From a virus (taxonomy: Duplodnaviria; Heunggongvirae; Uroviricota; Caudoviricetes), in the IMG/VR virus record IMGVR_UViG_3300031413_000001: 64,000 nt of DNA. One strand, 5' to 3'. Below are positions 2,527 through 41,331 of this stretch, in pieces (positions within the stretch are counted from its first letter, which is position 1; every line of letters begins with the position of its first letter). The position numbers and the translations under genes were made by a program. A model generated the notes under the pieces. It was not told where the DNA came from. It did no database searches and was given only the letters and a program-made list of their open reading frames with translations.

Positions 2527-2952
2527 TTACTTCGTAGTTTTTTCGGGAGGCTGAAGGGACCAAGTGCCCTTCAGCTTTCTACTCTTGGCCTTGACGAGCG
2601 TTCTCGTAATACCAAACGCCACTGGCGGAACCTCTGGCTTCTTTGCGCCACCCCATGCCAGCTTGAACATCGTGACATTCTTCATATCACGAAACCAGAT
2701 CTTAGCTTGCCTTCCAACCGCGAAGTCGCTGGCTTGTCCACACTTTTCCAGCTTGTAACGGCCTCCACTTTCCTGGAGCCAATCCCTTATGGGTTTTGCC
2801 CAGCGGTATTCCTCGAAGCCACCAGTCCATCGTGCGCTCGAGACATCACCCTGATTGAGCTTTCGCTGATAGAACTCTTCCAGCCATTCTCCCTGAACAC
2901 TGATATAGGGAAGTCCCAGCCATTTGCGCCACTTGACTTCTTCAATCAGCAT
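2527..2952 (-). CDS. FKLxW-family protein with C-terminal major-capsid-like peptide
   Basis: IWFRDMKNVTMFKLAWGG then VAFGITRTLVKAKSRKLKGTWS; GGAGG SD before ATG 2952. Confidence 0.8.
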   Translation of the reverse strand: MLIEEVKWRKWLGLPYISVQGEWLEEFYQRKLNQGDVSSARWTGGFEEYRWAKPIRDWLQESGGRYKLEKCGQASDFAVGRQAKIWFRDMKNVTMFKLAWGGAKKPEVPPVAFGITRTLVKAKSRKLKGTWSLQPPEKTTK

Positions 2953-3232
2953 TCTGTCCTCCAAAGGTCAGCTTGAACAACATGGCCAGGTTGTCGTTTT
3001 CTTTGATCAAAAAGAAAGCGCGAAAGCTGCTGGGGTTGACGTATGCGTCCCAAAGCACGTCTTCCATATAGATACGAGTAGCATCAAAGGCCACATCGCC
3101 ATGTTCGTTGGTACGGGGCTTGCTTTTCCATCCGGGCTCACCCAGACGCTCTGCGAGCCATCGGCCAGCGCGATCTATGCACTCGGCGTTGACTGGCACC
3201 TCAATGGTGTGAATGGTAGCTTCTAGATCCAT
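2942..3232 (-). CDS. FKLxW-family small protein
   Basis: ENDNLAMLFKLTFGG. Confidence 0.85.
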   Translation of the reverse strand: MDLEATIHTIEVPVNAECIDRAGRWLAERLGEPGWKSKPRTNEHGDVAFDATRIYMEDVLWDAYVNPSSFRAFFLIKENDNLAMLFKLTFGGQNAD

Positions 3233-3507
3233 GTCAGCTTGTATAGCACGGCAGCTTTGGAATCATAGAGTCGAATCATAAGCCTCCAGGAATAGACTTG
3301 TTCGCCATACTGACTGAGATCCGTGGAGGCATGAACAAACCTGCCATTGTAGGAGAAGTTGTGCTGGTCTAGCCAGTCCTTCATTTCCTGATCGAATAAA
3401 CGACTGGCATCATCCTCAGCCCGCCAACTGAGATCCCGATAGAGCTTTTTATTAGGAAGCGGAAAATCCCAATAGCTAGGCCCAGGTGAGTTTGAACAAC
3501 ATTGCAT
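3223..3507 (-). CDS. FKLxW-family small protein
   Basis: MKDWLDQ; LYDSKAAVLYKLTW; start uncertain. Confidence 0.75.
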   Translation of the reverse strand: MQCCSNSPGPSYWDFPLPNKKLYRDLSWRAEDDASRLFDQEMKDWLDQHNFSYNGRFVHASTDLSQYGEQVYSWRLMIRLYDSKAAVLYKLTWI

Positions 3508-3724
3508 CGGAAACTCTCTTAAAGTGAAATTCCAAACTTGTCATCCCATAATCTTCGAACATCCAACATTCGCCATGTTCCCAGTCCACACCCCATGCGC
3601 CAATGTTTTCTTGGATCCAGTCCCAGCACTCGTCCGAGAGACTGTCGTCGAAGCCGTGTTCATCTATAATGCAGACGCGGCTCTTGGGTATCACGACCCG
3701 AACGCCGTCAAGCCTCCTCGCCAT
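3476..3724 (-). CDS. FKLxW-family small protein
   Basis: CWDWIQE; FHFKRVSDAMLFKLTW. Confidence 0.85.
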   Translation of the reverse strand: MARRLDGVRVVIPKSRVCIIDEHGFDDSLSDECWDWIQENIGAWGVDWEHGECWMFEDYGMTSLEFHFKRVSDAMLFKLTWA

Positions 3725-4073
3725 CGCCCACCTGTGGAATTGCACTCGTGATCGTCAGTGGAATATAGGGGCAGTAAAAGGCCGTGATCTCCGGCATCAC
3801 TACTATCTGGATATCGGCGTGATCGTGCCAGGCTAACTTGAACAATTGAAAGACACTGGGGTCCTCAATCCAGATAGCCCTGCCTTTATCCATCCATGCC
3901 GTTCCCCATCGACCGGGACAGGTGTTGTCCATCCATTCGGCAAGAAAAGGTAAGATGCGGGGATTGGCACGAATATGCGTGGGCACTTCAGCATCAATGG
4001 CTTCCCAGGCAAAGAACATTTCTCCATCGCTGGGAACAATATACCACTGATGATGTTTCTCGATGAGTTTCAT
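3708..4073 (-). CDS. FKLxW-family protein with C-terminal major-capsid-like peptide
   Basis: WIEDPSVFQLFKLAW then AFYCPYIPL. Confidence 0.8.
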   Translation of the reverse strand: MKLIEKHHQWYIVPSDGEMFFAWEAIDAEVPTHIRANPRILPFLAEWMDNTCPGRWGTAWMDKGRAIWIEDPSVFQLFKLAWHDHADIQIVVMPEITAFYCPYIPLTITSAIPQVGDGEEA

Positions 4074-4510
4074 CAGCCGCACGCCAACTTAAACATCACC
4101 GCGTGTTCCTTGCTGTAGAAGGTCCACGTACACTCATAGACCGCAGAGGGAACAGGTTGAAGCTGTGGTATTGGATATCCATTACTGGAGTAATGTTGGG
4201 GCGAGTAATTGTTATAGTTGATTCCTGTTTGAAGACTTCCAACCAGATGAGCGTGTTCTCGAACCTGGGTGTTGTATTCCTCAATCTTCATGATATCCCT
4301 GAGATTATCCTGATATTCAGGCTCAACGGATCTCAGATGACGAAGGCAATCATTCTCGCCCATCCACCGAAATGCCGTGAGGAGTTTTTCCTCGCCGGGG
4401 ATCATAACATCAAAGATTGTGCCATCGTCATTCTGAAATGTGAAGCGGCTACGAGTTGCTGCTTTCAACGGACCAGAGAATTTAACGTCGAAGTGTTCCA
4501 GGATACGCAT
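4073..4510 (-). CDS. FKLxW-family protein
   Basis: WTFYSKEHAVMFKLACG. Confidence 0.8.
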   Translation of the reverse strand: MRILEHFDVKFSGPLKAATRSRFTFQNDDGTIFDVMIPGEEKLLTAFRWMGENDCLRHLRSVEPEYQDNLRDIMKIEEYNTQVREHAHLVGSLQTGINYNNYSPQHYSSNGYPIPQLQPVPSAVYECTWTFYSKEHAVMFKLACG

Positions 4511-4525
4511 TAACCCATTATGGGG

Positions 4526-4759
4526 TCAGCGGCCTCCAAAAGTCAATTTGAACAAGACAGCCGTGGCATTATCGGGAAGGTTGAACATCACCTGCCATCG
4601 ACTGTGATCGCGACCCAACATCCAGGTGACTTTGTCACTGACTGGCGGTGCGTTGTCGGCAAGCCAGTCCATGATGTCTGGATTGACGTGGACCTTCACC
4701 GATCCATTGCTTGAAGAATGGGCACAGGTCTTAAAGGGCAGAACGACGTTGACGCTCAT
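4526..4759 (-). CDS. FKLxW-family small protein
   Basis: IMDWLAD; DNATAVLFKLTFGG. Confidence 0.85.
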   Translation of the reverse strand: MSVNVVLPFKTCAHSSSNGSVKVHVNPDIMDWLADNAPPVSDKVTWMLGRDHSRWQVMFNLPDNATAVLFKLTFGGR

Positions 4760-5091
4760 GACCAAGTCAGCTTGAATAACATGGCGTGTTGCTTTTCCCG
4801 GAATACCAGTATCGCTCCAAGATCTGGACTATTGCCCACTTTATAGCCAGGAGCATATTGTTCCATCCAGGGATAAAGCTCACTGGCACGCCACTTGCTA
4901 TCAAAATGATCTCGGAAAAGCTGCTGGAGGTTTTCCTGTGGGCTGTTGCGGGCTTCCTGATCTTTTCGGGTAAGACGTTCCTCAGGGGTCTCGCGACCGC
5001 GCAGAACAAAGGAATTCTCAGGAATACACTTCTCGACGATTACTTTGAGTGGATTACCGCAATCCCAGACCATTTTATAGCTAGTCTGCAA
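4756..5091 (-). CDS. FKLxW-family protein
   Basis: LVFREKQHAMLFKLTWS. Confidence 0.85.
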   Translation of the reverse strand: MQTSYKMVWDCGNPLKVIVEKCIPENSFVLRGRETPEERLTRKDQEARNSPQENLQQLFRDHFDSKWRASELYPWMEQYAPGYKVGNSPDLGAILVFREKQHAMLFKLTWS

Positions 5092-5344
5092 TCAACTTGC
5101 TCCTGATCTCCGCAGTCCGCTGGGAGATAAGGTCGATCATCTTCATGGTGACCTGTACGTCGTTGTCCACCAGCCACCGGAGATCGTCCTCGTGGCTCTT
5201 TTCCAGATGACGGTGCATTGCTTCAATGCCTTCTGGCGGAGGACCCATTCGAGCGCAGACCTGATCGGCCAGCTGATGAAAGAGCTCCGCTCGCTTGATG
5301 ATCGAGACGTAAAAGAGATTTCGCATCACACGCTGGTCGGCCAC
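5081..5344 (-). CDS. hypothetical protein
   Basis: GTG start with GGAGG SD, coupled in array; lacks family motif. Confidence 0.6.
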   Translation of the reverse strand: MADQRVMRNLFYVSIIKRAELFHQLADQVCARMGPPPEGIEAMHRHLEKSHEDDLRWLVDNDVQVTMKMIDLISQRTAEIRSKLIAD

Positions 5345-5598
5345 TACAATCCTCCCCAAGTCAGTTTGAATAACATGACCTTATCCAGATCACAACCCTC
5401 TAGAAATGATATCATCACGCTATCTGTGCTGTCGTTGAATCCCCACACGGTGTTCATGGACACCACAGTTGCCAGCGGTTCGGCTGTGACATCATAGAGC
5501 TTTCGCTCCACTCCATCATCGTCCTTGACTAGCTTCCAGGGAAACCTATCTGTGGGTATGAAGATGGTTGTGATGATCACATTATCCCGAATAGTCAT
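5344..5598 (-). CDS. FKLxW-family small protein
   Basis: ATGA overlap; DLDKVMLFKLTWGG. Confidence 0.85.
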   Translation of the reverse strand: MTIRDNVIITTIFIPTDRFPWKLVKDDDGVERKLYDVTAEPLATVVSMNTVWGFNDSTDSVMISFLEGCDLDKVMLFKLTWGGL

Positions 5599-5882
5599 CG
5601 ACCACCCCATGCAAGTTTGAACATCATCGCCTTCGCGGGGTCTTTGAACTTGAAGTGAAGGAATTTTGCCGGACCGTTCTGGCGATCACCAGTTGCCAGA
5701 TACATGGGATCAATAGAACTCTCGCTGGCCCTCAGATAAAAGGCAGCTTTCCGGCTCCATGTATAATCCGTCATATCGCTGGCCTGTTGGCCTACATTCT
5801 GCACCAGCCAGTCGTGCATGACGAGGCGGAGGCCGTAGCCATCCCAAATCTCATCATTGACCTTGATGCAGATGTGCGTCAC
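5595..5882 (-). CDS. FKLxW-family small protein
   Basis: GTGA overlap; FKFKDPAKAMMFKLAWGG. Confidence 0.85.
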   Translation of the reverse strand: MTHICIKVNDEIWDGYGLRLVMHDWLVQNVGQQASDMTDYTWSRKAAFYLRASESSIDPMYLATGDRQNGPAKFLHFKFKDPAKAMMFKLAWGGR

Positions 5883-6160
5883 CGACCACCCCAAGAAAGT
5901 TTGCAGAGCATGGCATGACTGGGTCGATAGAAGAAGATAAAGAGACCCTTGTTATCCTCATCCTTGGTGGTGGTCCAAAGAATACCCAGCGGTCCGGCCG
6001 TGTCGTGTAGCCACTTTTGAAAGTCGGCGGTTGGATTGCGATGCCGTATGTAGCTGAATCCTTTGGACGTGGAAACATTCACACTCTCAAATGCCGGACT
6101 GTCATAGGATATGAATACCCTATGGCCCTGTTCAACAAGTGGATCCGCTAGACGTTTCAT
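5879..6160 (-). CDS. FKLxW-family small protein
   Basis: FFYRPSHAMLCKLSWGG. Confidence 0.85.
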   Translation of the reverse strand: MKRLADPLVEQGHRVFISYDSPAFESVNVSTSKGFSYIRHRNPTADFQKWLHDTAGPLGILWTTTKDEDNKGLFIFFYRPSHAMLCKLSWGGR

Positions 6161-6194
6161 AGAACCGTGTTAGCACCAGAACTTCCAGTGTCAA
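6161..6194 (-). promoter_or_regulatory. sigma70-type promoter, near-leaderless
   Basis: TTGACA-N14-GCTAAC-N8-ATG; no SD. Confidence 0.65.
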
Positions 6195-6195
6195 G

Positions 6196-6486
6196 CTATT
6201 TGAATGTGAGCTTGAACATCAGAGCGTGGTTTCTATCTTCAAAGCAATAGCAGATGTATTTGTTACTGGTCACCGCATTGTGGTACCAACTCCCCTCCTC
6301 GGGGGATTCTGGATCACGAAAATAGAAGCTGTTGTACTGGTCATCACCAACGTTGTTGGCAACCAGCCACTCATCAATGTCATCACGAAGAACCTGAGTG
6401 CTCTCACACCAGATGCTGCCAGGCAATTTCAGATATACGATGTGATAGTTGTCCTCGCCATTGGACTCTTCTGACAAATTGAACAT
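6196..6486 (-). CDS. FKLxW-family small protein
   Basis: IDEWLV; YCFEDRNHALMFKLTF. Confidence 0.85.
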   Translation of the reverse strand: MFNLSEESNGEDNYHIVYLKLPGSIWCESTQVLRDDIDEWLVANNVGDDQYNSFYFRDPESPEEGSWYHNAVTSNKYICYCFEDRNHALMFKLTFK

Positions 6487-6520
6487 CGCTCCTCCTACCT
6501 TTTGGGTAGCAGGAGTGCTT

Positions 6521-6814
6521 TCAAAAGTTCAATTTATAAAACCACAACAATTTGAACAACGCTGCTTCATTGCGATTACGAAACGCAAACGTGTAAGCGG
6601 TTGTTTTCCTTGGATACGTCTGGTATTTGTTCTTCTGATCCAAGAAGAAACCATCTTCATACTGGTGTACAAACCAATCAGTGGATTGGGGACCATCATC
6701 ATATAACCAATTGATGGAGTCAATCAGACGATCATATATGGGATCCTCGTGCCAGACACCAGGCACGGTCACGTGGTAGGGGAGAGCAGCCAATCGCTGC
6801 TGGGCATTCTTCAT
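6521..6814 (-). CDS. FKLxW-family small protein
   Basis: FAFRNRNEAALFKLLW. Confidence 0.85.
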   Translation of the reverse strand: MKNAQQRLAALPYHVTVPGVWHEDPIYDRLIDSINWLYDDGPQSTDWFVHQYEDGFFLDQKNKYQTYPRKTTAYTFAFRNRNEAALFKLLWFYKLNF

Positions 6815-7029
6815 CCCCATACCAACTTGAAGGCAACGGCCTTTCGAGCATCATCAAAGATAAACCGCCAACCTAATGGATCACCACCGGGCTTATCACA
6901 GATGATCTCCAGCGAGTAATCAAAATTCTTATTCCAGCTTTGATCAGTCAGCCACTGGAATAATTCAAAATCATTACCTTCGCGGGGGTAGATATCAACG
7001 ATCTTGCAGAATGGATACTCGGTACTCAC
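6811..7029 (-). CDS. FKLxW-family small protein
   Basis: FIFDDARKAVAFKLVWG. Confidence 0.85.
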   Translation of the reverse strand: MSTEYPFCKIVDIYPREGNDFELFQWLTDQSWNKNFDYSLEIICDKPGGDPLGWRFIFDDARKAVAFKLVWG

Positions 7030-7235
7030 ATGCCACCCAGTGTGAGTTTGACGATCAGGGCCTTGTTGGCATCGTGAAACCAGAAGCTAAGATAGTCCAG
7101 CTTTCCGCCGTGCATGTCAATCTGCCAGTCACGTTCCGCTTTGAGCTTGTTTTCATGCAGCCAGTCGATCGAATTGTCGCCATAGGGATCCTTGGCCCAG
7201 CTGATCTTTACCTCGTAGATGAATTGCTTTCTCAC
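7026..7235 (-). CDS. FKLxW-family small protein
   Basis: FWFHDANKALIVKLTLGG. Confidence 0.8.
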   Translation of the reverse strand: MRKQFIYEVKISWAKDPYGDNSIDWLHENKLKAERDWQIDMHGGKLDYLSFWFHDANKALIVKLTLGGM

Positions 7236-7477
7236 ACGCCGCTCCAGGCTAACTTGAACAGCATGGCTTTCTTGGGATCCGCGAAGCCAAAGTGAGCGCA
7301 GCCATCAATGCGGAGTATCCGCCAGGAACCTTTCCAGCCCCACTTGCTGCTGTAGATCATTTCCTTTCCCACGTGGGCTAACAACCAGGCTTTTACCTCG
7401 TCGCTGGCCCGCATAACAAAGGGTTCGTCGTTCCATGCCCAGATGTGGTCATCGGATTTAACAAAGGTATGACTCAC
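7232..7477 (-). CDS. FKLxW-family small protein
   Basis: GTGA overlap start; FGFADPKKAMLFKLAW. Confidence 0.85.
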   Translation of the reverse strand: MSHTFVKSDDHIWAWNDEPFVMRASDEVKAWLLAHVGKEMIYSSKWGWKGSWRILRIDGCAHFGFADPKKAMLFKLAWSGV

Positions 7478-7806
7478 CGTCCGCCCCACGTCATCTTGAA
7501 GCGGACGGCTTCGCTGGACAATTTGAACAAAAATATCAGACATGCAGAGTTATCATCTTTCCCCACTTGGGTAAAGGAGGTCAGCGATGCCGGTTCCCTC
7601 TTGACTGCGAAGCCCTGTTTGATATGGGCCCTGCACCAAGTTTCCAGAAACAACAGAACGGATGTGGACTTTAGATCGTCCAGAGGTGTGGCCATGTCCT
7701 CCCGTTCTTGATCGAACAGGTGAAACATGGTTCCCATCGTGATTGTAACAGGTGTCCAGCTTTCCAATTGCATCTCACGGTTGACCCTAGATAAGGCTTT
7801 GAACAT
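7474..7806 (-). CDS. FKLxW-family protein
   Basis: FLFKLSSEAVRFKMTWGG. Confidence 0.85.
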   Translation of the reverse strand: MFKALSRVNREMQLESWTPVTITMGTMFHLFDQEREDMATPLDDLKSTSVLLFLETWCRAHIKQGFAVKREPASLTSFTQVGKDDNSACLIFLFKLSSEAVRFKMTWGGR

Positions 7807-8290
7807 GAGTACCTCCGAAAGTCAACTTGAACAACATGGCGATCCTGGCATCCTTGAACTCAAACCCCGTGGCGTTGAGGACTCCAGTCTCGGTTATATA
7901 GGGACCATAGCTGTAATCACCGGAGTTTGCCAAGTCATGCTCCTTGAACCATTTGGCAATGTCGGTGTTAGCTAGAGTTCCTTCACTGTAACGGATTCCT
8001 CTGACGATCACCACATGCTTGTGGGAGGGATTCCAGTCCGTGAAGTGGTTTTTGAATTTGGTACCCAGGACTTCATCGTTCCAGTGGAACAACGACCAGT
8101 GACCATCAATCGAAGCCCAGAGACGAAGGGGGCGGGTTTCTAGGGCATGGCTGTCAACGACCTCCTGGTCCCTTGTTCCCGCCCAAGCGTCATGGTCGTC
8201 CAGCCACTGGTCAAGTTGCTTTCCCAGCTTGGCCGCGAAGTTACCATAATCGATAACACAATACTGACGAGTGGAGATACAGACTAGCAT
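7787..8290 (-). CDS. FKLxW-family protein, probably two tandem domains
   Basis: internal FHWNDEVLGTKFKNHF and terminal FEFKDARIAMLFKLTFGG. Confidence 0.8.
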   Translation of the reverse strand: MLVCISTRQYCVIDYGNFAAKLGKQLDQWLDDHDAWAGTRDQEVVDSHALETRPLRLWASIDGHWSLFHWNDEVLGTKFKNHFTDWNPSHKHVVIVRGIRYSEGTLANTDIAKWFKEHDLANSGDYSYGPYITETGVLNATGFEFKDARIAMLFKLTFGGTHVQSLI

Positions 8291-8550
8291 CAGCGCCAAC
8301 CTCCAAAGGTCAGCTTGAAGTGAAGGGCGGTACCACGATCGCGAAAGGCCCAGGCCATCGTGACCTTCTTGCTGTAACCGGGCTTGCCGGTCTGGTGCTC
8401 AAAGCAAACAAAGTCCTTTTGGTAGACTAGGTTGCTTTCCTTGATCCACGCAATCATTTCCTCGCTGCGGGCCAACTGACGATCAGTGGGCAGATCAGGC
8501 AGTTCCAGCGCGGTGGGAAATTGGCGGTACTTGCTGTCGATCTGTTTCAT
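8290..8550 (-). CDS. FKLxW-family small protein
   Basis: WAFRDRGTALHFKLTFGG. Confidence 0.85.
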   Translation of the reverse strand: MKQIDSKYRQFPTALELPDLPTDRQLARSEEMIAWIKESNLVYQKDFVCFEHQTGKPGYSKKVTMAWAFRDRGTALHFKLTFGGWR

Positions 8551-8584
8551 AGAACTGGCTTAGCACCGCTCTACTCTATGTCAA
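8551..8584 (-). promoter_or_regulatory. sigma70-type promoter, near-leaderless
   Basis: TTGACA-N14-GCTAAG-N8-ATG, same layout as 6161-6194. Confidence 0.65.
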
Positions 8585-8796
8585 CCAAATCGTAGCTTGA
8601 AGTGCATGGCGAGTTGTCGATGCTCGTCGCTGAAGCCAACGCTACGCTGGCCAAAGGTGGTGAAGACCTTTCGACTCTCTAGATTGTTCTTGAGGATCTG
8701 AGCCCACAGCCAGGAAAAGGCATCCGTGTAGTCGGTAATACAACATGCCAGTTCTACACGGTGCGGCCATTGCTGTTCAAAGGTGGGCTCTACCAA
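8581..8796 (-). CDS. FKLxW-family small protein
   Basis: VGFSDEHRQLAMHFKLRFG. Confidence 0.8.
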   Translation of the reverse strand: MVEPTFEQQWPHRVELACCITDYTDAFSWLWAQILKNNLESRKVFTTFGQRSVGFSDEHRQLAMHFKLRFG

Positions 8797-9050
8797 TCCT
8801 GATCTTCCCGTCGCTTGCCCAGATAGATATTGCAGTCCAGCAGATCATAGTGGCCGTCCACGTAGATCTTGTGCTCACCGGACTTGAACTCCCGGAGCCA
8901 GGAGTCGTCGGCATCCATAACGTACACGATGGAGCCATCATAACTGACAACAACCATCTTGGTAGCGCCGGTTGCTAGAAAGCTCAGCGTTACACGGAAG
9001 ATATGCGGTTCCTGGCTGAGCATCTTTACGGGACTTTCCACGCTTCTCAC
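8790..9050 (-). CDS. hypothetical protein
   Basis: ORF coupled to array; upstream TTGACA near 9090. Confidence 0.6.
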   Translation of the reverse strand: MRSVESPVKMLSQEPHIFRVTLSFLATGATKMVVVSYDGSIVYVMDADDSWLREFKSGEHKIYVDGHYDLLDCNIYLGKRREDQDW

Positions 9051-9080
9051 CTTATGATGTGAATAACAGTTTACGATGGA

Positions 9081-9350
9081 TTATTGAGTTGTCAAGTAGA
9101 GCAAACCAAAATGTCCGGCCAGATAGGTGAGGAATCCACCCCACCCGGCAATGAACAATAGGATGGCAACAAGAATGGTCTTTTCCTTGATGCTGATGCC
9201 CTTGGAGATCACATAGCTGTACGCTAGGATCAATGCCAAGATGGTGATCGCAGCCATGATAACGCTGACGCCAGAGAGGGCGAGGCCCAGGAGACCAAAG
9301 AACATAACACTTAGAATGTGCATAGGGTTGTATCCTTTCCTAGAATACAA
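9081..9350 (-). CDS. small membrane protein (2 TM)
   Basis: two long hydrophobic segments; probable start at MHIL (AAGG upstream). Confidence 0.6.
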   Translation of the reverse strand: MYSRKGYNPMHILSVMFFGLLGLALSGVSVIMAAITILALILAYSYVISKGISIKEKTILVAILLFIAGWGGFLTYLAGHFGLLYLTTQ

Positions 9351-9515
9351 CCCTACTACAGAAGCTTCCCAAGCAGCAATATGTATATGCTCTATCTATA
9401 CTCTTTGTCAACCGCATATATGCCAGGGCGGAAACCACAAAGTACGTGGATAAGCCCTGATACCTTGTACTAAATATCAGCGAGCAGCCCGCAGGAGTTA
9501 ATAGTGAGTTAGGCT

Positions 9516-9779
9516 ATGAGCAATATCATTCACTTTCCCAACGCGGTACAGGCAAGCCGTGGGGCAATGACACTAGAACCGGCTAAGGCCACAGTCAAAG
9601 ACGGTTCATATCCAATGCTAATAGGGCCGTGGGAATACACTTGCTTCAAGTGCGATACCAAGGTTTCCTTTGATTCGCAAAACATGATTTTTAGATCGGT
9701 AGACTTTCACTGCGCCAAATGTGGTGCAATCCACAAGGTTGTCAACCCCGCGTTTTCAACCGCAATCACAAAAAAGTAG
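9516..9779 (+). CDS. zinc-ribbon protein
   Basis: CFKC...CAKC; TAAATA at 9471. Confidence 0.7.
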   Translation: MSNIIHFPNAVQASRGAMTLEPAKATVKDGSYPMLIGPWEYTCFKCDTKVSFDSQNMIFRSVDFHCAKCGAIHKVVNPAFSTAITKK

Positions 9780-9818
9780 AGTTGGTAAATATCGGAAATC
9801 CTCTCCAAGGAGATCGTT

Positions 9819-26447: not shown

Positions 26448-26836
26448 GCAAATACTTGAGCGGCCGACCCTTTATGGTCATTTCCTACAGCTACGTTCTA
26501 GCTGCGGGACAAAAGAGCAACACGCCAGGCTTTGGCGCCACTGCAGAGTGGGATCCAATCGAGAACATGGTCATCGTTGATCGTGTTACCAACAAGCAGA
26601 CGCAGAATGCAGAGTTGATCCTCGATCTCTTTGAGAGCAAGGTTCTCAAGAGCAGGAACGTGGACAGTGATGAGGAAAAGTCCAAGCTGTTCAACATGTT
26701 CGTCTCCAAGTATTTTGAAGACGTCAAGGCCGCGCTGGTAAAGTGGATTGCCGCCGACAGCGCAAATCTATCCAAGGTTCAGAACTTTGTGGATGCCCAC
26801 AATGCACGAAAGGTAGAAGAAGATGACGGAAATTGA
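26444..26836 (+). CDS. hypothetical protein
   Basis: coupled ORF. Confidence 0.7.
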   Translation: MSKYLSGRPFMVISYSYVLAAGQKSNTPGFGATAEWDPIENMVIVDRVTNKQTQNAELILDLFESKVLKSRNVDSDEEKSKLFNMFVSKYFEDVKAALVKWIAADSANLSKVQNFVDAHNARKVEEDDGN

Positions 26837-27134
26837 TCCAGAGACAATGATGAAGGTAGAAGTCCTCAAGATGGAATTGGTTTCCATCTTGTTGGAATTC
26901 ATGTCGGATATGAATAACGAGGAGACTCGTGCCAAAGTCGTAGAAGACTTCACCGACTACCTGGAGGCCAGCGAAGCATACGACTACACGGTTGTCTGCG
27001 ACGAAAGCAACAATACTCCTGATCGTGTCAGCGATCTAGAGCTGTGGGTGGATGTTGCTGTGAACTTTGCTGAGGATGAAGATTACATCTACATTCCTCT
27101 TCGCCTGAGCCCGAGGTTTGTTGATGAAGAGTAA
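26823..27134 (+). CDS. stand-alone tail-sheath C-terminal-domain-like protein
   Basis: YDYTVVCDESNNTPDRV...ELWVDVAV....YIYIPLRL resembles gp18 C-terminus. Confidence 0.75.
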   Translation: MTEIDPETMMKVEVLKMELVSILLEFMSDMNNEETRAKVVEDFTDYLEASEAYDYTVVCDESNNTPDRVSDLELWVDVAVNFAEDEDYIYIPLRLSPRFVDEE

Positions 27135-33618: not shown

Positions 33619-33623
33619 ATTTG

Positions 33624-33741: not shown

Positions 33742-34107
33742 TCAACATTGCGGGCACAAAGATCGCTCAAGAAACTGCTGATTGTTTACCATATAGGCAA
33801 CCATGGAATCAGTGGCCTCGGGAAAGTCGAACAGCGAATGCCAGGCATAGCTTCCCTGACCCATGGGCTCATCAGAGACCCACACGTGAAATATCTGATG
33901 GACTGGATCCTCGATATAATCCAACACCCACTCGTTGTCCTGTACATCTTGCCCCAAGGCAGTGCCGCAATCATCCATTGCCAGATAAACGATTGGTTTC
34001 TCATAATCGTTTGGCATATTGCTGGGAAAGCCCCACGAGTTGTTCTCTTGCCGGAGTAGAAAGCGTCCGGTTGTTCTGCTCTGGATAATCATCACGTTAT
34101 GTTTCAT
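33742..34107 (-). CDS. degenerate NUDIX-like protein
   Basis: GRFLLRQ..WGFP..YAWHSL layout without an intact Nudix box. Confidence 0.5.
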   Translation of the reverse strand: MKHNVMIIQSRTTGRFLLRQENNSWGFPSNMPNDYEKPIVYLAMDDCGTALGQDVQDNEWVLDYIEDPVHQIFHVWVSDEPMGQGSYAWHSLFDFPEATDSMVAYMVNNQQFLERSLCPQC

Positions 34108-34206
34108 ACCACTCCTCTAGCAGGGTGGAAATCCTGGGATCAATTGAATACTGACAATTCAGAGCATTTTCCCGTATAAAGAGAGAAGACCAAATAGGGA
34201 GTTCAT

Positions 34207-34854
34207 ATGAGTAAAAAATCTGGTATGGAGAAGGGCGTGGCGGAAATCAAAGTTGAGTCCACTCCCGAGTCCACTACAGTTATGGCCACGGTTCCAGTCA
34301 ACCCAGTTCCAACCTTGCGCGACAAGGGAATGTACTTTCTCAGCGGTGGCTTCAACAGTGAAAGCGCCAGCAAGATTGTCACGTGGATCCTCGAGGCCAA
34401 CTTTGCTCCCAAGAATGATTTCGATCATCTGACGCTGATCATCAACAGCCCTGGTGGTGAAGTCAACAGCGCCTTTGCGATCATCGACGCAATGGAGGGA
34501 AGCGCCATCCCCGTTCATACCGTTGGTCTGGGGATGATTGGTAGCTGCGGCTTCCTAACGTTCATTGCTGGTGCCAAGGGTCACAGGATCTTGACGCCCA
34601 ACACTTCCATTCTAAGCCACCAGTGGTCTTGGGGTGATGCAGGCAAGGCACATGAGCTCTTTGCAACGGTTCGTGAATACGAGCTCACGCAGACGCGCAT
34701 GATGAACCACTACATCAAGCACACCGGACTTACCAAGGCGCAGATTGAGCAGAAGCTCTTGCCGCCACATGATATCTGGTTGAGTGCTCAGGAAGCCAAG
34801 GACCTTGGCGTCTGCGACGACATCAAGATCATGGGACAGGGAAACGCCAAGTAA
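34207..34854 (+). CDS. clpP: Clp protease proteolytic subunit
   Basis: INSPGGEV, catalytic S (IGSCG), H (SHQW), D (HDIWLSAQEA). Confidence 0.93.
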   Translation: MSKKSGMEKGVAEIKVESTPESTTVMATVPVNPVPTLRDKGMYFLSGGFNSESASKIVTWILEANFAPKNDFDHLTLIINSPGGEVNSAFAIIDAMEGSAIPVHTVGLGMIGSCGFLTFIAGAKGHRILTPNTSILSHQWSWGDAGKAHELFATVREYELTQTRMMNHYIKHTGLTKAQIEQKLLPPHDIWLSAQEAKDLGVCDDIKIMGQGNAK

Positions 34855-35258
34855 TGGAATACGTTGCAGGACTTCTCTTCAGCGACGAGGGTGACCGCGT
34901 TGCACTGATCTTGAAGAACCGGCCCGCATGGCAGGCTGGTTCCTACAATGCCATCGGTGGAAAGATTGAGCCCGGTGAGACTTCCTTCATGGCTATGAAG
35001 AGGGAGTTCATCGAGGAAGCAGGCGTGGACATTGACTGGGATCTGAGGATTACCCTTCAGGGTCCAGACTACAAGGTTCACTTCTTCTCCTGCTACAATA
35101 GCGAGGCGATGACGTACCTTCGTACCTGTACGGACGAGATTGTGGAAGTGGTTGAAACCTACAACCTTCCCGAGAACGTGATCCCCAACCTTTGGTGGAT
35201 TGTGCCCATGATGAATGACGAAAGCATCGAGGGACAGACCATTAAGGTCTCAGAGTAA
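34854..35258 (+). CDS. NUDIX hydrolase
   Basis: GGKIEPGETSFMAMKREFIEEAG. Confidence 0.9.
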   Translation: MEYVAGLLFSDEGDRVALILKNRPAWQAGSYNAIGGKIEPGETSFMAMKREFIEEAGVDIDWDLRITLQGPDYKVHFFSCYNSEAMTYLRTCTDEIVEVVETYNLPENVIPNLWWIVPMMNDESIEGQTIKVSE

Positions 35259-35288
35259 ATAGTCTGAGATTCCTTAATGATGAGAGAT

Positions 35289-35507
35289 ATGAGTAAAGAA
35301 GACACACTGAAGATGAAGGGTCTAGTAACCGAGATCCTTCCAAACGCTCTATTTCGTATCAGGCTCGAGAATGACGCAATGATTATTGGTCATATCTCGG
35401 GCAAGATGCGTAAGAACAACATCAAAGTTCTTGTCGGCGATGCCGTGGATTTGGAGATGACTCCATATGACCTGACCAAAGGTCGGATCACGTTCCGCTA
35501 CAAGTAA
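35289..35507 (+). CDS. infA: translation initiation factor IF-1
   Basis: [36 protein letters not shown], 72 aa. Confidence 0.96.
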
Positions 35508-35768
35508 TCAGCCCCACGTTAGCTTGAACAGCAAGGCAGTGTTGGGATCCTTGAAAAAGAAGTCCGCATTGCCATAACTGGGATAGCAGTAATATACCCA
35601 ATCACTGTAGTATCGCTCGTCCGTGAGAACATGCGACTCCAGCCAATCCCTTACCTCTGGTAACAAAGCTGGCTGATTGGGCCAGTCCAATGATACCACG
35701 TTGTTCAGCGGTACCTCATGGACCGGATACATCCAGGGACCATTGCGACGTATCTGAACCGCATTCAT
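35508..35768 (-). CDS. FKLxW-family small protein
   Basis: VRDWLE; FFFKDPNTALLFKLTWG. Confidence 0.85.
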   Translation of the reverse strand: MNAVQIRRNGPWMYPVHEVPLNNVVSLDWPNQPALLPEVRDWLESHVLTDERYYSDWVYYCYPSYGNADFFFKDPNTALLFKLTWG

Positions 35769-36139
35769 AGCCAGGTAAGTTTGAACAACATGGCCTGATC
35801 CTTCCGCCGGAAGTAGATCCAGTTCCAGTGCTCTTTGTACTTTCCACTTGCGTTTTGTGGCATCAGGACAAAGTCGTCATCTGACAGATTGGCCTTGATC
35901 CAATCCATCATGGCCAGTTCCTGCGAGTCATCAACGGATCGGCCAATAAAGGCAACTGGCATGCCATGTGGGTGATCTTTGATCTCTTCCTCAAAGTTCA
36001 TTTCGCTCTGACGAAGAAGTAGCTCACGCATCTGGAGGAAGAGCGAAGCACCATCAGCCCCCGGTTTGGAAAACTGGTCCTGAACCGCCTGGATCTTCTT
36101 GAGGATTTCCTCGTCGAAGTTTTCGTAGACGTTGCTCAT
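35765..36139 (-). CDS. FKLxW-family protein with N-terminal extension
   Basis: IYFRRKDQAMLFKLTW; ATGA overlap. Confidence 0.85.
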   Translation of the reverse strand: MSNVYENFDEEILKKIQAVQDQFSKPGADGASLFLQMRELLLRQSEMNFEEEIKDHPHGMPVAFIGRSVDDSQELAMMDWIKANLSDDDFVLMPQNASGKYKEHWNWIYFRRKDQAMLFKLTWL

Positions 36140-36432
36140 CGTCCACCCCACGTGAGCTTGATGTACGTGGCAGATCCCAGATCGTTCAAGAACAGAATGG
36201 GTTCCATAGACTGAAGGCGACGTTGTGGGCCTGATGGCATGGTAACAAAGGTCTTCTTGGTATGACGATGGTCGATCGCTTGGATCAAGACCTCGTAATC
36301 CACGTTTTCCTTTTTGCCCGACGAGATCAGCCAGGCTTCCACTTCTTCAAGGACCTCGGTGTTCTTCATGCGAATATGATGTGACCACGGCCCATGCTTT
36401 GCCAGCATGTAGAAGAGTGGCTTCAATGCCAT
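36136..36432 (-). CDS. FKLxW-family protein
   Basis: LFLNDLGSATYIKLTWGG. Confidence 0.8.
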   Translation of the reverse strand: MALKPLFYMLAKHGPWSHHIRMKNTEVLEEVEAWLISSGKKENVDYEVLIQAIDHRHTKKTFVTMPSGPQRRLQSMEPILFLNDLGSATYIKLTWGGR

Positions 36433-36677
36433 GCGAGCTTGAACTTCATCGCATCGTTGTGATCATGGAAGGCAATCCTCAGACCACCATACTCCTTGTG
36501 CTCATAGAGGTACCAATGGCTCTTGACCATGTCCTGGAGCCAGCTCTTTACTTCTGGCACAACGGTAAAGTGGGTTCCATTCCGCTTGATGCTGGTCTTC
36601 CGAACGATCAGGTCCGACCGGACTTCTTCACTGTGGGGACGAACTTTCACTGGAACCTCTTTGTCTAATTGCCACAC
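36423..36677 (-). CDS. FKLxW-family protein
   Basis: IAFHDHNDAMKFKLAW. Confidence 0.85.
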   Translation of the reverse strand: MWQLDKEVPVKVRPHSEEVRSDLIVRKTSIKRNGTHFTVVPEVKSWLQDMVKSHWYLYEHKEYGGLRIAFHDHNDAMKFKLAWH

Positions 36678-36711
36678 TTTTATTACATGAATAGAACAAC
36701 GTCAACCGCTG

Positions 36712-37104
36712 TTAGATTCTCAGACCCCAAACGTGACTCTTAAACTGGCCAGCCAGCTCACGGGTCTCAAACTGCACAAACCAAGCCTTGCCATCCCACA
36801 GTCCCTTTTTGTAGCTGGGAGAGTGTTCGGCGCCTGGAACGGGCACTAGGACGGGAACAACCTCGGGGGCAAAGTGTTCCAGCCAGACACGCTCCGCATA
36901 CCGTATATCAATCTTACTGAACAGCATGTTGCCATGCTCCTTCCAATAGTTGATTGATCGCTTGTACTTGGAAGTCCGACGCCTCTTGATTCGCCGTGCC
37001 TTGGCACTTACGGGGCCTCCCCGTCCACTCAAACTTCTAAGAAATGCCCTGCCGGACATTCTCCGTGCCTTCGTACTCTTGGTGCGACTTTTTCTTTTTG
37101 CCAT
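36712..37104 (-). CDS. FKLxW-family protein with highly basic N-terminus
   Basis: K/R-rich first 50 aa; VQFETRELAGQFKSHVWG. Confidence 0.7.
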   Translation of the reverse strand: MAKRKSRTKSTKARRMSGRAFLRSLSGRGGPVSAKARRIKRRRTSKYKRSINYWKEHGNMLFSKIDIRYAERVWLEHFAPEVVPVLVPVPGAEHSPSYKKGLWDGKAWFVQFETRELAGQFKSHVWGLRI

Positions 37105-37593
37105 TTAGCCCCACGCAAGTTTGAACATCAGCGCAATGGATTCCTTCTTGAACAAGAAGACCTCACGCTCCCGCTTGTCAATCTCCACAATGCAGACTTG
37201 GTACTTAAAGTTCTGCTCACGAAGCCATGCAAGGATTGTGCGACGATGAGCAGTTCGTAGCTCAAGTGTTTCTTGATCCATACGGGGCAGGACCCATCGC
37301 TTTGCAGGAAGGTTGTCCACATTGGGAGCGCGAGTGACTTTGATCTCCCCGCCCTTTTGATGGAACTTGGGATCGTACTTGCTTTCCCAAGCCTTCCTCT
37401 GTGTGTAGTAACTCTGAGGCTTCATGACTTCCTCACCTGGCTCAATGAAGTCATACCAAAATGGCATTGGAAACAGGATCTTGGGGTAGATAACATTACT
37501 GAAGGGTTGGAATATGGACTGGCTGATAGTGGTCTTGCCCATCTGCCGGCCAGCAATAATTGGATAGTGTCGTCCAGACATAGGATCTCGCAA
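37105..37593 (-). CDS. FKLxW-family protein with N-terminal terminase Walker-A-like peptide
   Basis: IIAGRQMGKTT; FLFKKESIALMFKLAWG. Confidence 0.8.
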   Translation of the reverse strand: MRDPMSGRHYPIIAGRQMGKTTISQSIFQPFSNVIYPKILFPMPFWYDFIEPGEEVMKPQSYYTQRKAWESKYDPKFHQKGGEIKVTRAPNVDNLPAKRWVLPRMDQETLELRTAHRRTILAWLREQNFKYQVCIVEIDKREREVFLFKKESIALMFKLAWG

Positions 37594-37659
37594 GCTATCG
37601 TGTCGATCTTTTCCTGCGATAACTCAATATAGTACCATGTACTCTGGAGTGCAAGAGTT

Positions 37660-37684
37660 GAGGGTGGCCGTTAAGCCACCCCCT
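37660..37684. terminator. hairpin terminator
   Basis: GGGTGGC/GCCACCC stem directly after NTase stop. Confidence 0.5.
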
Positions 37685-38574
37685 TAGGCATTCCAAACTG
37701 GATCGAGAGCCACATCATCGACCGAGTAATCGTTCTTGCCAGCACTCCTCGAGAATGCTTCCAAGAAACGCTCACGTGCCTCGTCGAAACGATCCGGCAT
37801 CACGGCCCTGACTTTGTTGACCAGCTTCTCAAAGGTGTTGACCTCCGAGTGATCCACTGGCGTACCAAACAAGAGTTCCAAGACAGCACTGGGTTCCGTT
37901 ACGTGGTTCAAGCGAGAGAACCTGGGAGCACCAGGAACGCTTGTCTCGAACTCGTCTGCGGTCACCACGTTCATGCCCTGACCATCCCGCTTCAGCATCT
38001 TCCACTGACGGTACAAGCCCTTTTCCAAGTCAAAGCGGAAGCCCACTCTTGCGACACGGACTCCATCCTGCAGGAGTTCAAAGTCCTTGTGCATCTTGGC
38101 CAACACACCCAACATCGTGGACAACATGACACCCTTGTAGGGGCTGTTGTCCTTGCCGGGCGAAAAGTGGCTGAACTTCAACCATTCAGGATTACCGGCC
38201 ACGAAGTCAACCTGCACAAAACCCTTCTGAGGATCGCCAGCAACTGGGAAGGCAGTCTGAAACTGACCACCCTTGAGGGTCTTGGTCTGAACATGACCCG
38301 GAGGCAAGACTTCCCAAGCACGCTCGGCGAAAGCCCTCAAGCTGAACACCGGAAGATCGGCCTCACCGTGGAACCGGGCTGCCTTGTTGTTCAAGGCAAA
38401 GTCCAGATCGCCGCTGTCGGCCTGTTTTCCCGCGCTGCCCATCATGTTATCCATGGCGTACGCCATATCAAACCCAGGCATGTTCATTACGGATACAACA
38501 TGATTTACAGTGGAGACAACATCCTCCCTTCGGACTCGCACCATCTGCAAGCCCGGAAACGCATTTCCGCCCAT
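37684..38574 (-). CDS. Pol-beta-superfamily nucleotidyltransferase
   Basis: MGSAGKQADSGDLDF and QVDF acidic triad. Confidence 0.75.
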   Translation of the reverse strand: MGGNAFPGLQMVRVRREDVVSTVNHVVSVMNMPGFDMAYAMDNMMGSAGKQADSGDLDFALNNKAARFHGEADLPVFSLRAFAERAWEVLPPGHVQTKTLKGGQFQTAFPVAGDPQKGFVQVDFVAGNPEWLKFSHFSPGKDNSPYKGVMLSTMLGVLAKMHKDFELLQDGVRVARVGFRFDLEKGLYRQWKMLKRDGQGMNVVTADEFETSVPGAPRFSRLNHVTEPSAVLELLFGTPVDHSEVNTFEKLVNKVRAVMPDRFDEARERFLEAFSRSAGKNDYSVDDVALDPVWNA

Positions 38575-38700
38575 GGAAAACCACCCTGAAAGGAGTAAAA
38601 CCTCGCAGGGTGGCCAAATGTCACGTCATCAAAGATGGTGCGCTAGTTAGGACCCTGCCGATCTCAAATAAGGCACCAATATATCATGACGTTTCCTTTG
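38575..38700 (-). promoter_or_regulatory. structured 5' leader of NTase gene
   Basis: CCACCCTG/CAGGGTGG hairpin over SD; ACGTCAT/ATGACGT and TGGTGC/GCACCA stems; 7-codon uORF. Confidence 0.45.
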
Positions 38701-38738
38701 CTTCGAACCACAACTCTATAGTGGTTGGGTTCCACTTG

Positions 38739-38984
38739 TCAACCTATTGGATTGCTCTCGTTCTTTAGCTTCATCTTGTCTCGAATCAGCTGACGAACTT
38801 CCTCGTCGTCGGTCAAGATATCAACAACGTCGGGGTGGAGTGCTGCTGAACCGCCACCCATTCCACTGAGCATCCGCTGGGAAACAAAGCACGTCATGAC
38901 CGCAGCGGTCATGATCTGGCCAGGCTCTGCTGGGAATATGGGCCGGAGCCCATAAGCGATGATCTTCTTAGCCATAGTTGACAT
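38739..38984 (-). CDS. hypothetical protein
   Basis: GGGGA SD, coupled. Confidence 0.6.
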   Translation of the reverse strand: MSTMAKKIIAYGLRPIFPAEPGQIMTAAVMTCFVSQRMLSGMGGGSAALHPDVVDILTDDEEVRQLIRDKMKLKNESNPIG

Positions 38985-39525
38985 TTCCCCCTGCCTTCAC
39001 CGAACCATAGACGTCATCGCAGCTTACGCTGCCGCCGGCTTCCACGTTTCCGCCAACCTCATCACAAGAGACGGAACCGCTTGCCTTGACATCACCGCCC
39101 ACGTCACCACAGGAAACGGATCCCTGAGCTGTCACGCTCTCCGTGACATTGCCCGTGATGGTGATCGACTGGTCGCTGGAGACGTTCTTCACATCGCCCT
39201 GGACCTTGATCTCTAGAACGGTGGACATGTCCACGCCCGACTGATCGGTAACGTCCTTTCCATCAACGATGATGCGTCCACCAACCATCGAGATGTTGTT
39301 GCCGTGAAACGTCCGGCCATTGACTTGCATTGTTCCCATGCCACTTCCCCTGTTGTTGAATCGCCCGACCACGTCACCGCCGGTCATGTCGCCATTGACG
39401 ACCCTCGAATTCCTGTGCCCACTTTTGGCAGCTTTCTGGTAAGCGGCAATCACGATACAGATGCTCGTTCCTGCCATCATACCTAGAACAAAGATGATCG
39501 CTTGAAACCAAAACGGAATCATCAA
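38968..39525 (-). CDS. beta-helix (bactofilin-like) repeat protein with N-terminal TM
   Basis: GSVSC(G/D)(D/E)V(G/Y)G.V.A repeats. Confidence 0.7.
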   Translation of the reverse strand: MMIPFWFQAIIFVLGMMAGTSICIVIAAYQKAAKSGHRNSRVVNGDMTGGDVVGRFNNRGSGMGTMQVNGRTFHGNNISMVGGRIIVDGKDVTDQSGVDMSTVLEIKVQGDVKNVSSDQSITITGNVTESVTAQGSVSCGDVGGDVKASGSVSCDEVGGNVEAGGSVSCDDVYGSVKAGGNVNYG

Positions 39526-39614
39526 CTATCTCCCATTGGCGCAAAGGCCAGTATCAACAAGGCAATCACCCCAACGGCCATCATGGCTATGAAGATGATA
39601 ACGCCGCTGTTCAC
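39522..39614 (-). CDS. 30-aa membrane peptide, not in ORF track
   Basis: MNSGVIIFIAMMAVGVIALLILAFAPMGDS, overlapping both neighbours. Confidence 0.5.
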   Translation of the reverse strand: MNSGVIIFIAMMAVGVIALLILAFAPMGDS

Positions 39615-40075
39615 AGCCCCAGAGCCTTCAACTGCTCAATGGTGTCCTCGGCGCTGGTATGCAGGATCGCAACACCGCCGGCTTCAGTCCACCGATTGGT
39701 GTTCTTTTCCATGTCGTCGATCAGGATATCCCCTGGCGCCTTCATGTGCTTGGGCTTGTAACGCGACAAGCAGGTGATGATTGGAACGTGGAGACCAAGC
39801 TCACGATTCTTCCAGATGGTCTTGCCATCGGCGGCCTGCTGCATTCCACTGGATGGACAGCCGCTCAGGATCGTAGGCTCATACTTGGAAATGTAGGCCC
39901 ACAGCTGAAGTGCACCTGGCATGGCGGGAAGCTGCTCCCAGTGGGCCATGTTGTCCTTGATGATCTTCCACATCACGAACTCGGGCACCTCATTGTGCTT
40001 TTTGCCGTATTGCATCTCGAACCCTCGTTCGAAATCAACCAGCACTCCATCAAAGTCACAGAATATGTGTGGCAT
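39611..40075 (-). CDS. HAD-family 5'(3')-nucleotidase-like
   Basis: IFCDFDGVLVDF, ILIDD. Confidence 0.88.
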   Translation of the reverse strand: MPHIFCDFDGVLVDFERGFEMQYGKKHNEVPEFVMWKIIKDNMAHWEQLPAMPGALQLWAYISKYEPTILSGCPSSGMQQAADGKTIWKNRELGLHVPIITCLSRYKPKHMKAPGDILIDDMEKNTNRWTEAGGVAILHTSAEDTIEQLKALGL

Positions 40076-40137
40076 CTTGTCTCCTCTTCATCGATCTTTC
40101 TGATTCCCTCTGAATCATTCTGATCCCATATATAATA

Positions 40138-40219
40138 GCTACTCCGGACAGGGCTTACTTGGTACATGCAGATTGCATGTTTTCGGATAGCCCCTTCCAG
40201 CGGGCTGAACCGGAATAGC
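40138..40219 (-). ncRNA. candidate structured RNA element
   Basis: GCUAUUCCGG/CCGGAGUAGC closing stem, GGGCU/AGCCC, ACAUGCA/UGCAUGU. Confidence 0.4.
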
Positions 40220-40265
40220 ATGGAAATCCACATATCTCAATTAAGAACTGCCCAGAGGCGCGCCT

Positions 40266-40742
40266 TCAGTCCTTATCTTCCGCTAAGGACTTAGGCAATC
40301 CAAAAGTGGGTGGCGCGGGCTGGGATGCGGCGTATTTGGCCCGCATGGTGTAGATGCTGCTATGTGGACCCTGCATGGGCGAAATCCCGAGAATATCCTG
40401 AGCAATCACGCGAGGCATCACGCGTCGAATAATGGGCAAGATAACCTTGCCAAAGACCGTCTTCTCATATGGCATACAGGGAACCCACACGAGCTTGAAC
40501 CACGTGGCGTGCTTGGCATGCTGAAAGCTGATCAGGGTATCGTATGGGTACTCATTGAACCCCGGATAGCGTTCCTTGTAGTCGAGGCGCATTAGTGAGC
40601 TATCGTTGAGATTTGCCTTTATCAGAAGAGCCTCGAGCTCTTCCATGCGCTCAGGCATCAGATGGAATTGAAAGCCCAGCCTGAAGTGGCGCCTCTTCAT
40701 CCGACTTGATTTCCAACGAGGCTTGCTTGAATTGGTTTTCAC
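40266..40742 (-). CDS. FKLxW-family protein fused to Gol-like major-capsid peptide
   Basis: ISFQHAKHATWFKLVW then VILPIIRRVMPRVIAQDILGISPMQGP. Confidence 0.85.
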   Translation of the reverse strand: MKTNSSKPRWKSSRMKRRHFRLGFQFHLMPERMEELEALLIKANLNDSSLMRLDYKERYPGFNEYPYDTLISFQHAKHATWFKLVWVPCMPYEKTVFGKVILPIIRRVMPRVIAQDILGISPMQGPHSSIYTMRAKYAASQPAPPTFGLPKSLAEDKD

Positions 40743-41331
40743 GTCGTATCTCCGAATCGAGCATCATTACATATTGGGACCAGGAGGAGACCTCCATGTT
40801 CTCAACCCACTGGTCATACCAGGCCAGAGGATCACCAGTGGATTCATAATCCAGCATGATGATCTCCTTGCAGGGATTAAGACTCCGGCCTTTGATCTGG
40901 TGCATTGTGGGAAAGATGCCAGGAGTGGTCTGGCTTATCAGAGGCAGAGTCCACGTTGGAGCGTTGGCCGACATTGCGCCACGCCGTTGGGAGCCGGTCA
41001 TGACTTTGCCAAAATGACTGTTGAGGGTGAGCTTTCCCATCCAAGTACGCATCTTTTCTGCGTAGTCTATCTTGGCGTCTTCGTTCCAGCTCAGCTTGAA
41101 ACGGATGGCATCTTGTTTGCTGGTAAAGCGAACAATGGTCTCTGGGTTCTCATAGAAGGAATATAGTGGAGGCTTGTGGAGACGCCACTTTCGGCCCTTG
41201 ACCCCAAACGCTTCCCCCAGGAAGTCCTGTAGCTCAGTTTCCCGCGTTCGCTCTACGAACAAGGAGATCTGATGACCAAACCAGTTTTCACCACGCTGTT
41301 CGGGTGTGCGATCTTTGAATGAATATTCCAT
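40651..41331 (-). CDS. FKLxW-family protein with tail carrying PolB- and RNR-like motifs
   Basis: VRFTSKQDAIRFKLSW then KLTLNSHFGK and NPCKEI. Confidence 0.75.
   Translation of the reverse strand: MEYSFKDRTPEQRGENWFGHQISLFVERTRETELQDFLGEAFGVKGRKWRLHKPPLYSFYENPETIVRFTSKQDAIRFKLSWNEDAKIDYAEKMRTWMGKLTLNSHFGKVMTGSQRRGAMSANAPTWTLPLISQTTPGIFPTMHQIKGRSLNPCKEIIMLDYESTGDPLAWYDQWVENMEVSSWSQYVMMLDSEIRRENQFKQASLEIKSDEEAPLQAGLSIPSDA

Follow-up and report, generated by a model that had tools for sequence, protein, structure and literature searches.

Segments resembling conserved motifs of core phage proteins on a duplicated miniprotein family of a T4-like jumbo phage

A 64,000-nucleotide stretch of DNA from a tailed phage (IMG/VR record IMGVR_UViG_3300031413_000001; the window) encodes about 40 copies of a miniprotein family characterized by an FKLxW motif, and five of these copies, the carriers c1 to c5, bear a short extra peptide, or tag, outside the shared domain, or scaffold. 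An earlier note on this DNA proposed that the peptides resemble three segments of the T4-type major capsid protein gp23, the Walker A motif of the terminase, motif B of family B DNA polymerase (PolB) and the active-site loop of ribonucleotide reductase (RNR), and that they serve as bait for bacterial immune proteins or interfere with co-infecting phages. All five open reading frames exist on the minus strand and match the family hidden Markov model (HMM), with E values of 5e-13, 3e-3, 2e-11, 4e-12 and 2e-13 for c1 to c5; these values are not independent, since the model was built from window members and the five cores were among its seeds. The peptides lie where they had been reported, the c1 tag now being placed at 2557-2622 instead of 2554-2622 and the c4 tag at 40332-40445 instead of 40329-40454 (Table 1). 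Our sequence analysis indicates that the tagged miniproteins are largely a real feature, repeated capture and selection included.

Capsid segments on FKLxW miniproteins

The window derives from a T4-like jumbo phage of about 464 kb, and the exact c5 protein is also encoded on a 463,863-bp contig. As a proxy genome we used a viral record of 416,714 bp with 94-97% DNA identity over the window; all core genes referred to below as the phage's own are genes of this proxy. Its gp23-type capsid protein is 86% identical to that of Sinorhizobium phage Phosso (PV764938.1), a cultured relative of 469 kb, and its full-length capsid gene is located elsewhere in the genome, apart from the carriers.

With the HMM, 110 family copies were identified in the proxy genome, and five other relatives have 58-272 each. 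The median length is 97 residues, 75% of the members terminate no more than 3 residues from the FKLxW motif, and a tail of at least 20 residues is present in about 5%. In one 561-kb genome (G014), some 270 copies make up about 30% of the called genes. No PHROG family matched the scaffold, which is modelled as a small alpha/beta domain (predicted local distance difference test, pLDDT, 85 for the c2 model). In a structural comparison in which SUI1, KH, ACT and DCoH-like folds were considered, the best hit had Z 4.3 (root mean square deviation 3.4, 76 aligned residues) and none reached a Z of at least 5; a Foldseek viral search gave no hit below E 0.1. The tags in the c2 and c5 models are of low confidence and mostly without secondary structure: the c2 tail has none, and c5 tail residues 107-165 have a pLDDT below 50.

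Three different gp23 segments are present on c1, c2 and c4, as the earlier note had claimed. E values of the c4 tag are 1.8e-11 against Pfam Gp23 and 1.6e-11 against phrog_138; for the c1 tag the same profiles give 0.004 and 0.005. The c2 tag outscores 300 of 300 shuffles against the proxy capsid protein (p<0.004). The c4 tag is homologous to residues 94-122 of T4 gp23, with 14 of 39 residues identical to T2 gp23 and 23 of 39 to the own-clade capsid, and it retains the RRxxP and DIxGxxPM pattern of Gol. Compared with the proxy capsid gene, 24 of 40 residues and 62% of nucleotides are identical, with the same codon at 9 of 22 shared residues. Among matches to phage records, the c1 tag falls in capsid genes in 15 of 17; in the two Rhizobium matches the frame differs from that of the annotated gene, and they were treated as chance. 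The c2 tag has 458 weak matches, mostly in cyanophage records, where the listed matches are capsid genes. By homology the tags are thus segments of gp23 (PF07068). The carriers themselves, with 121-144 residues and matches of 17-40 residues, are not full gp23-type capsid proteins, which have an HK97 fold, about 400 residues and a place in a head gene cluster.

When 627 family flanks were screened without bias against 106 core-gene profiles taken from six genomes, a screen blind to terminase, PolB and RNR tags because these are too short, six short matches of at least 10 bits were returned, all to gp23. Reversed flanks gave one match. A sample of other, untagged small genes of twice the size gave four matches, none to gp23, and two in its reversed control. 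Together with the profile and shuffle results, this places the resemblance to gp23 beyond chance.

Selection was measured for all five carriers against distant orthologues, as synonymous (pS) and amino-acid-changing (pN) differences. Across the tags pS is 0.63-0.80 and pN 0.11-0.32, the latter no higher than the scaffold value. For c1, whose orthologue in relative L268 retains the tag, pS is 0.80 and pN 0.30; for the c2 tag the ranges are 0.63-0.72 and 0.11-0.32, and for the c4 tag pS is 0.68-0.79 and pN 0.28-0.32, compared with 0.41-0.49 for the c4 scaffold. Column conservation is 0.72-0.76 in tags and 0.33-0.37 in linkers (for c2, tag 0.76, scaffold 0.56, linker 0.33). The search profile that yielded the 16 proteins related to c2, several of which reach further to the capsid FxTRY motif, itself contained the tag, which inflates their tag conservation somewhat; relatives of c3, c4 and c5 were found by whole-protein queries. 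Motif residues are retained in orthologues that are only 22-53% identical overall. Saturated synonymous sites combined with low amino-acid change indicate that the tags are kept at the protein level. The captured pieces are therefore maintained by amino-acid selection, and the gp23 tags are old; neutral debris, which the earlier note had named as a possible refutation, and a role at the DNA or RNA level are both disfavoured.

The same segments recur in relatives, ahead of the scaffold in some proteins and behind it in others. Gol is found at the C-terminus of c4 and its orthologues but at the N-terminus of P0004. For AKSR, c1 has the segment C-terminally and a G009 gene N-terminally; YxPYxPL likewise is C-terminal on c2 but N-terminal on Phosso gp170. 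The spine helix, as a fourth capsid segment, occurs on one G007 gene together with a decayed AKSR-type segment. In a tree of the scaffold the 14 carriers are scattered and 11 changes are needed, although only 6 of 81 branches are supported. That different phages have the segments on opposite sides of the scaffold, together with this scatter on a weak tree, indicates that small carriers captured gp23 segments repeatedly.

Recurring fusions had been anticipated, and so had a single displaying scaffold; the latter expectation stands only in part. Fusions do occur on FKLxW proteins, of which few are tailed, but Gol is also found on carriers outside the family HMM (in G006, G007, G010 and Phosso gp276), and one capsid motif stands alone. 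This last case is a 43-residue gene of Aeromonas phage AhFM11 (L262:1456-1587), behind a dCTPase gene, with the capsid C-terminal motif; it belongs to PHROG 13936, and 42 records of Aeromonas and Stenotrophomonas phages contain homologues, the motif being checked in one. In Phosso gene 276 (L279:4200-4856), the Gol-like segment is encoded by an in-frame upstream stretch outside the annotated start, so that the true start probably lies some 200 bp upstream of the annotated one; at its C-terminus the product is similar to neighbours 277-278, which form a second paralogue family. The ESM Atlas holds clusters of viral proteins of 63-123 residues with Gp23 matches (57-113 members). Open frames of 190-270 residues at G007:299664-300239 and G008:337097-337366 show weak gp23 matches over a longer stretch (profile positions 219-317) and possibly encode free A-domain-like proteins, the A-domain being the part bound by Avs7, 8 and 10.

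Table 1 Features of the FKLxW family in the window, with the carriers and their tags.
Feature	Position	Strand	Description	Basis
Main tandem array	219..8796	plus 219-1564, minus 1795-8796	about 26 family genes, mostly untagged	family HMM
Carrier c1	2527..2952	-	141 residues: scaffold (2653-2805) and C-terminal gp23 segment	
c1 tag	2557..2622	-	AKSRxLK segment of gp23, capsid residues ~170-190, immediately preceding the spine helix	
Carrier c2	3708..4073	-	121 residues: scaffold and C-terminal gp23 segment	
c2 tag	3741..3791	-	gp23 C-terminal YxPYxPL segment, capsid residues ~348-365 (AFYCPYIPL at 3756-3782)	
Array of four	35508..36677	-	untagged family genes	family HMM
Carrier c3	37105..37581	-	158 residues: variable N-terminus and scaffold (37108-37266)	
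c3 motif	37528..37560	-	terminase-type Walker A look-alike RQxGKT, weak, lineage-restricted	
Carrier c4	40266..40700	-	144 residues: scaffold (40485-40670) and C-terminal Gol-region copy	
c4 tag	40332..40445	-	conserved N-terminal segment of gp23, homologue of the T4 Gol region	
Carrier c5	40651..41331	-	226 residues: scaffold (41086-41265) and tail with a string of enzyme motifs	
c5 LDYE element	40840..40863	-	conserved 12/12	orthologue alignment
c5 RNR look-alike	40861..40878	-	thiyl loop NPCxE	orthologues
c5 degenerate segment	40906..40959	-		orthologue alignment
c5 PolB look-alike	41005..41034	-	motif B KxxxNSxYG (F for Y in c5)	orthologues
Untagged gene	41373..41678	-	family gene upstream of c5 and c4	family HMM

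Enzyme motifs on c5 and c3

The tail of c5 was compared with 11 homologues, and the counts that follow are out of these 12 proteins. The motif KxxxNSx(Y/F)G is present in 11 (10 by pattern, and the truncated P0010 by alignment), as are NPCxE-type loops. The LDYE element may be exonuclease-I-like. PolB motif A, matching the proxy's own, is found in two or three orthologues; in P0013 and P0014 it (DINSxY) occupies the site of the degenerate segment of c5, and five other orthologues carry an SGKT Walker A after this site. Motif B thus precedes motif A, opposite to the enzyme, and the tail looks as if it had been assembled piecewise. No motif C was seen, so c5 differs from a family B DNA polymerase, in which A, B and C follow one another within a folded palm and fingers domain, and its six-residue loop alone does not make an RNR, in which the thiyl loop sits in a ten-stranded barrel of a protein of more than 500 residues.

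None of the c5 motifs occurs in reversed tails, and the two main patterns are found 0 and 1 times in 400,000 reversed residues. The c5 motif B segment ranks PolB first of the 106 core profiles (hhalign E 0.002), which, with its retention in orthologues, bears out its earlier identification. The profile check proposed for the extensions was successful for c4 and c1 against gp23 but not for PolB and RNR as single sequences: c5 alone has no family match in Pfam or PHROG. Among the c5 members the three best PHROG matches are RNR (E 0.002), DNA polymerase (0.005) and NrdA (0.019), each for one member; the profile-profile scores of the RNR and motif A segments are no better than reversed controls, and a PDB sequence search with the c5 profile gave no match. 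The proposed RNR loop is conserved, but it is unlike the clade's own RNR, which has NLC where c5 has NPC, so that the c5 loop would be foreign or ancestral. In the proxy (L005-L024, L027; record about 90% complete) we found no long open reading frame with an RNR thiyl loop; NrdA is encoded in four relatives.

The terminase motif of c3 fared less well. RQxGKT is present, with 8 of 15 residues identical to the Walker A of the proxy's terminase (p ~0.04, uncorrected), but it is kept in only 3 of 13 orthologues (region conservation 0.27), and some of the others have a Q-motif-like stretch in the same region. The motif stands alone, as opposed to the conserved Walker A within the ATPase domain of a large terminase. 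An 18-nucleotide in-frame exact match to the proxy's terminase is only suggestive of recent DNA copying from own genes, since in-frame exact matches of 15-18 nucleotides are common background. Capture of a terminase piece is plausible. Judged on all the motifs, an origin as captured pieces is established for gp23, likely for PolB and an RNR, and weak for the terminase. Another family member, at G014:79487-79921 (L211), has a C-terminal Walker A and, after it, a YFDTES element, as in a piece of a RecA-type or terminase ATPase.

Possible roles of the tagged miniproteins

We propose that the much-duplicated small alpha/beta domain acts as a carrier, of which a minority of copies has taken up, in frame and separately, 10-45-residue pieces of core phage genes. 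These pieces are predicted by the models to hang off the domain as flexible arms. The arms keep the residues that are invariant in the parents yet cannot assemble or catalyse, which suggests that a partner reads those residues; the conservation in c5 of catalytic-site motifs (PolB A and B, Walker A, NPCxE) without the surrounding domain points the same way. The partner may be a host surveillance protein that reads conserved linear phage motifs and that the tagged miniprotein would occupy or divert without productive activation. This is favoured by the overlap of the tag parents with established immune triggers (capsid protein, DNA polymerase, RecA-type ATPase and terminase), and by the example of Lit and CapRel, which recognise short motifs of the capsid (bioRxiv 10.64898/2026.01.04.697583). 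We favour, tentatively, the reading that the tagged miniproteins may be bait or mimics for such sensors. On a wider scale, T4-like phages, chiefly this jumbo clade, might run a modular anti-immunity display in which a paralogue scaffold with captured hallmark motifs (capsid, polymerase, ATPase, RNR) neutralises motif-reading sensors; the catalogue of tags would then map what bacterial immunity recognises, undiscovered sensors included, and we put this forward as a cautious possibility.

Several points weigh against a bait. About 95% of the family is untagged, the c3 motif is poorly retained, and we know of no sensor of an RNR motif. Avs sensors bind whole folds, with Avs7, 8 and 10 enveloping the folded capsid A-domain (bioRxiv 10.64898/2026.01.04.697583), and arms of 10-40 residues would be poor mimics of these. 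Moreover, free Gol with EF-Tu activates Lit (PMC3014915), so that a Gol copy could trigger the defence instead of blocking it. Simple titration is therefore not the obvious outcome.

Which capsids the tags resemble bears on the alternatives. Gol tags score highest against the own jumbo clade (about 125-155, compared with 58-123 for other gp23s; the G006 tag is a near tie), and the C-terminal gp23 tags have mixed nearest matches, many of them closest to the own clade. This agrees with a role as address tags for the phage's own machinery, in which capsid arms dock on subunits or the prohead (as assembly regulator, chaperone aid or head cargo) and enzyme arms target the replisome, and use of the spine helix as a fourth segment also fits. 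However, the PolB, Walker A and RNR motifs lie buried as catalytic sites and are no docking surfaces, the NPC of c5 differs from the NLC of the clade's RNR, and tag sets vary among relatives whose capsid segments are near invariant. We consider address tags unlikely, if the best placed of the alternatives to a host-sensor bait.

Reuse of parental contacts with EF-Tu, chaperones and proteases to steer host translation, folding or degradation is doubtful. T4 Gol does bind EF-Tu and inhibit its GTPase, which was proposed to be general for gp23 (PMC3014915), and c4 and c5 adjoin dnaJ and clpA-like genes in several genomes. Such hijacking would account for the Gol tag only, as we know of no such contact for the other segments, and the spread of family genes over the whole genome makes neighbourhood weak evidence. 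Modelling of a complex between the c4 tag and Sinorhizobium EF-Tu scored 0.00, which is evidence neither way.

Interference with co-infecting T4-like phages, the second role suggested earlier, by dominant-negative capsid or enzyme fragments, fits poorly and is more doubtful still. The c1 tag is nearer to gp23 of T2, Campylobacter and Rhizobium phages than to the own clade (9-10 versus 6 identities of 21), c4-group tags have a T4-like Asp where the own capsid has Glu, and the NPC loop is foreign to the clade; but the c1 differences are small, and since the Gol tags and many C-terminal tags match the own clade best, the owner would be poisoned first. Lastly, a non-adaptive origin, with motifs acting as recombination or homing hot spots whose often supplied fragments persist as harmless or merely stabilising tails, is very unlikely: introns and inteins favour such motifs and the c3 piece looks recent and transient, but motif residues persist at saturated synonymous divergence and tags are better conserved than linkers.

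Viral mimic inhibitors are well known, T7 Ocr imitating DNA and vaccinia K3L eIF2-alpha. The tagged miniproteins would share with them the imitation of something bound by a host protein; they differ in copying motifs of phage core proteins, modularly and repeatedly. In the exclusion system of T4 gp23 Gol, e14 Lit and EF-Tu (PMC3014915), to which the c4 tag is related by homology, Gol is a trigger within the capsid protein, whereas the c4 tag is a separate copy on a non-capsid miniprotein and one of several tags. Capsid, polymerase, ATPase and terminase are sensed by the Avs STAND sensors, and the parents of the tags overlap with this list; Avs proteins read folded cores, whereas the tags are short and predicted to be unstructured; we found no inhibitor of this type in the Avs paper (bioRxiv 10.64898/2026.01.04.697583). 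Capsid motifs outside the capsid protein are also catalogued, without function, in PHROG 13936 of Aeromonas T4-like phages, which lacks the FKLxW scaffold, and in PHROG 12830 (128 residues, labelled major head protein), which we know by its catalogue entry only. A literature search of incomplete coverage, with Iyer 2021 covered by keyword, found no paper describing such grafts of core motifs.

These proteins touch on two open questions, namely by which precise features bacteria recognise a phage, and by what means phages conceal essential proteins that they cannot mutate. Selected free copies of invariant motifs point to motif-reading partners and are ready baits for pull-downs, and cultured carriers of such tags (Sinorhizobium phage Phosso, Aeromonas phages 25 and AhFM11) make the idea testable. 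Should the tags have no immune role, the repeated uptake of core-gene pieces by a family with about 60-270 copies per genome is still a route to new genes, and one of which we found no description. The tags also cause small genes to be mislabelled as capsid proteins in databases.

Gene neighbourhood

The order of the untagged family gene, c5 and c4 is conserved in L109, L267, L270 and G003. Genes that we named from their sequences as ClpP-like, Nudix, IF-1, DnaJ and ClpA-like flank the tagged carriers (34207-35507 and 42099-45437), and the order of the Clp, Nudix, IF-1 and DnaJ genes around the carriers is kept in relatives, partly in Phosso. A single low-cover RNA run (0.07 word share, contigs only) gave no cover over c4 and c5, which at this depth is uninformative.

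Two further small genes of the window resemble parts of core proteins. A 103-residue gene (26823-27134) matches, at 55 bits, the C-terminal domain of what is probably the tail sheath protein of the clade and is, by this match, a free-standing copy of a structural domain. The other (56038-56463), which adjoins a 669-residue gene, matches a core profile of 456 positions, probably that of DNA ligase, in its N-terminal part alone.

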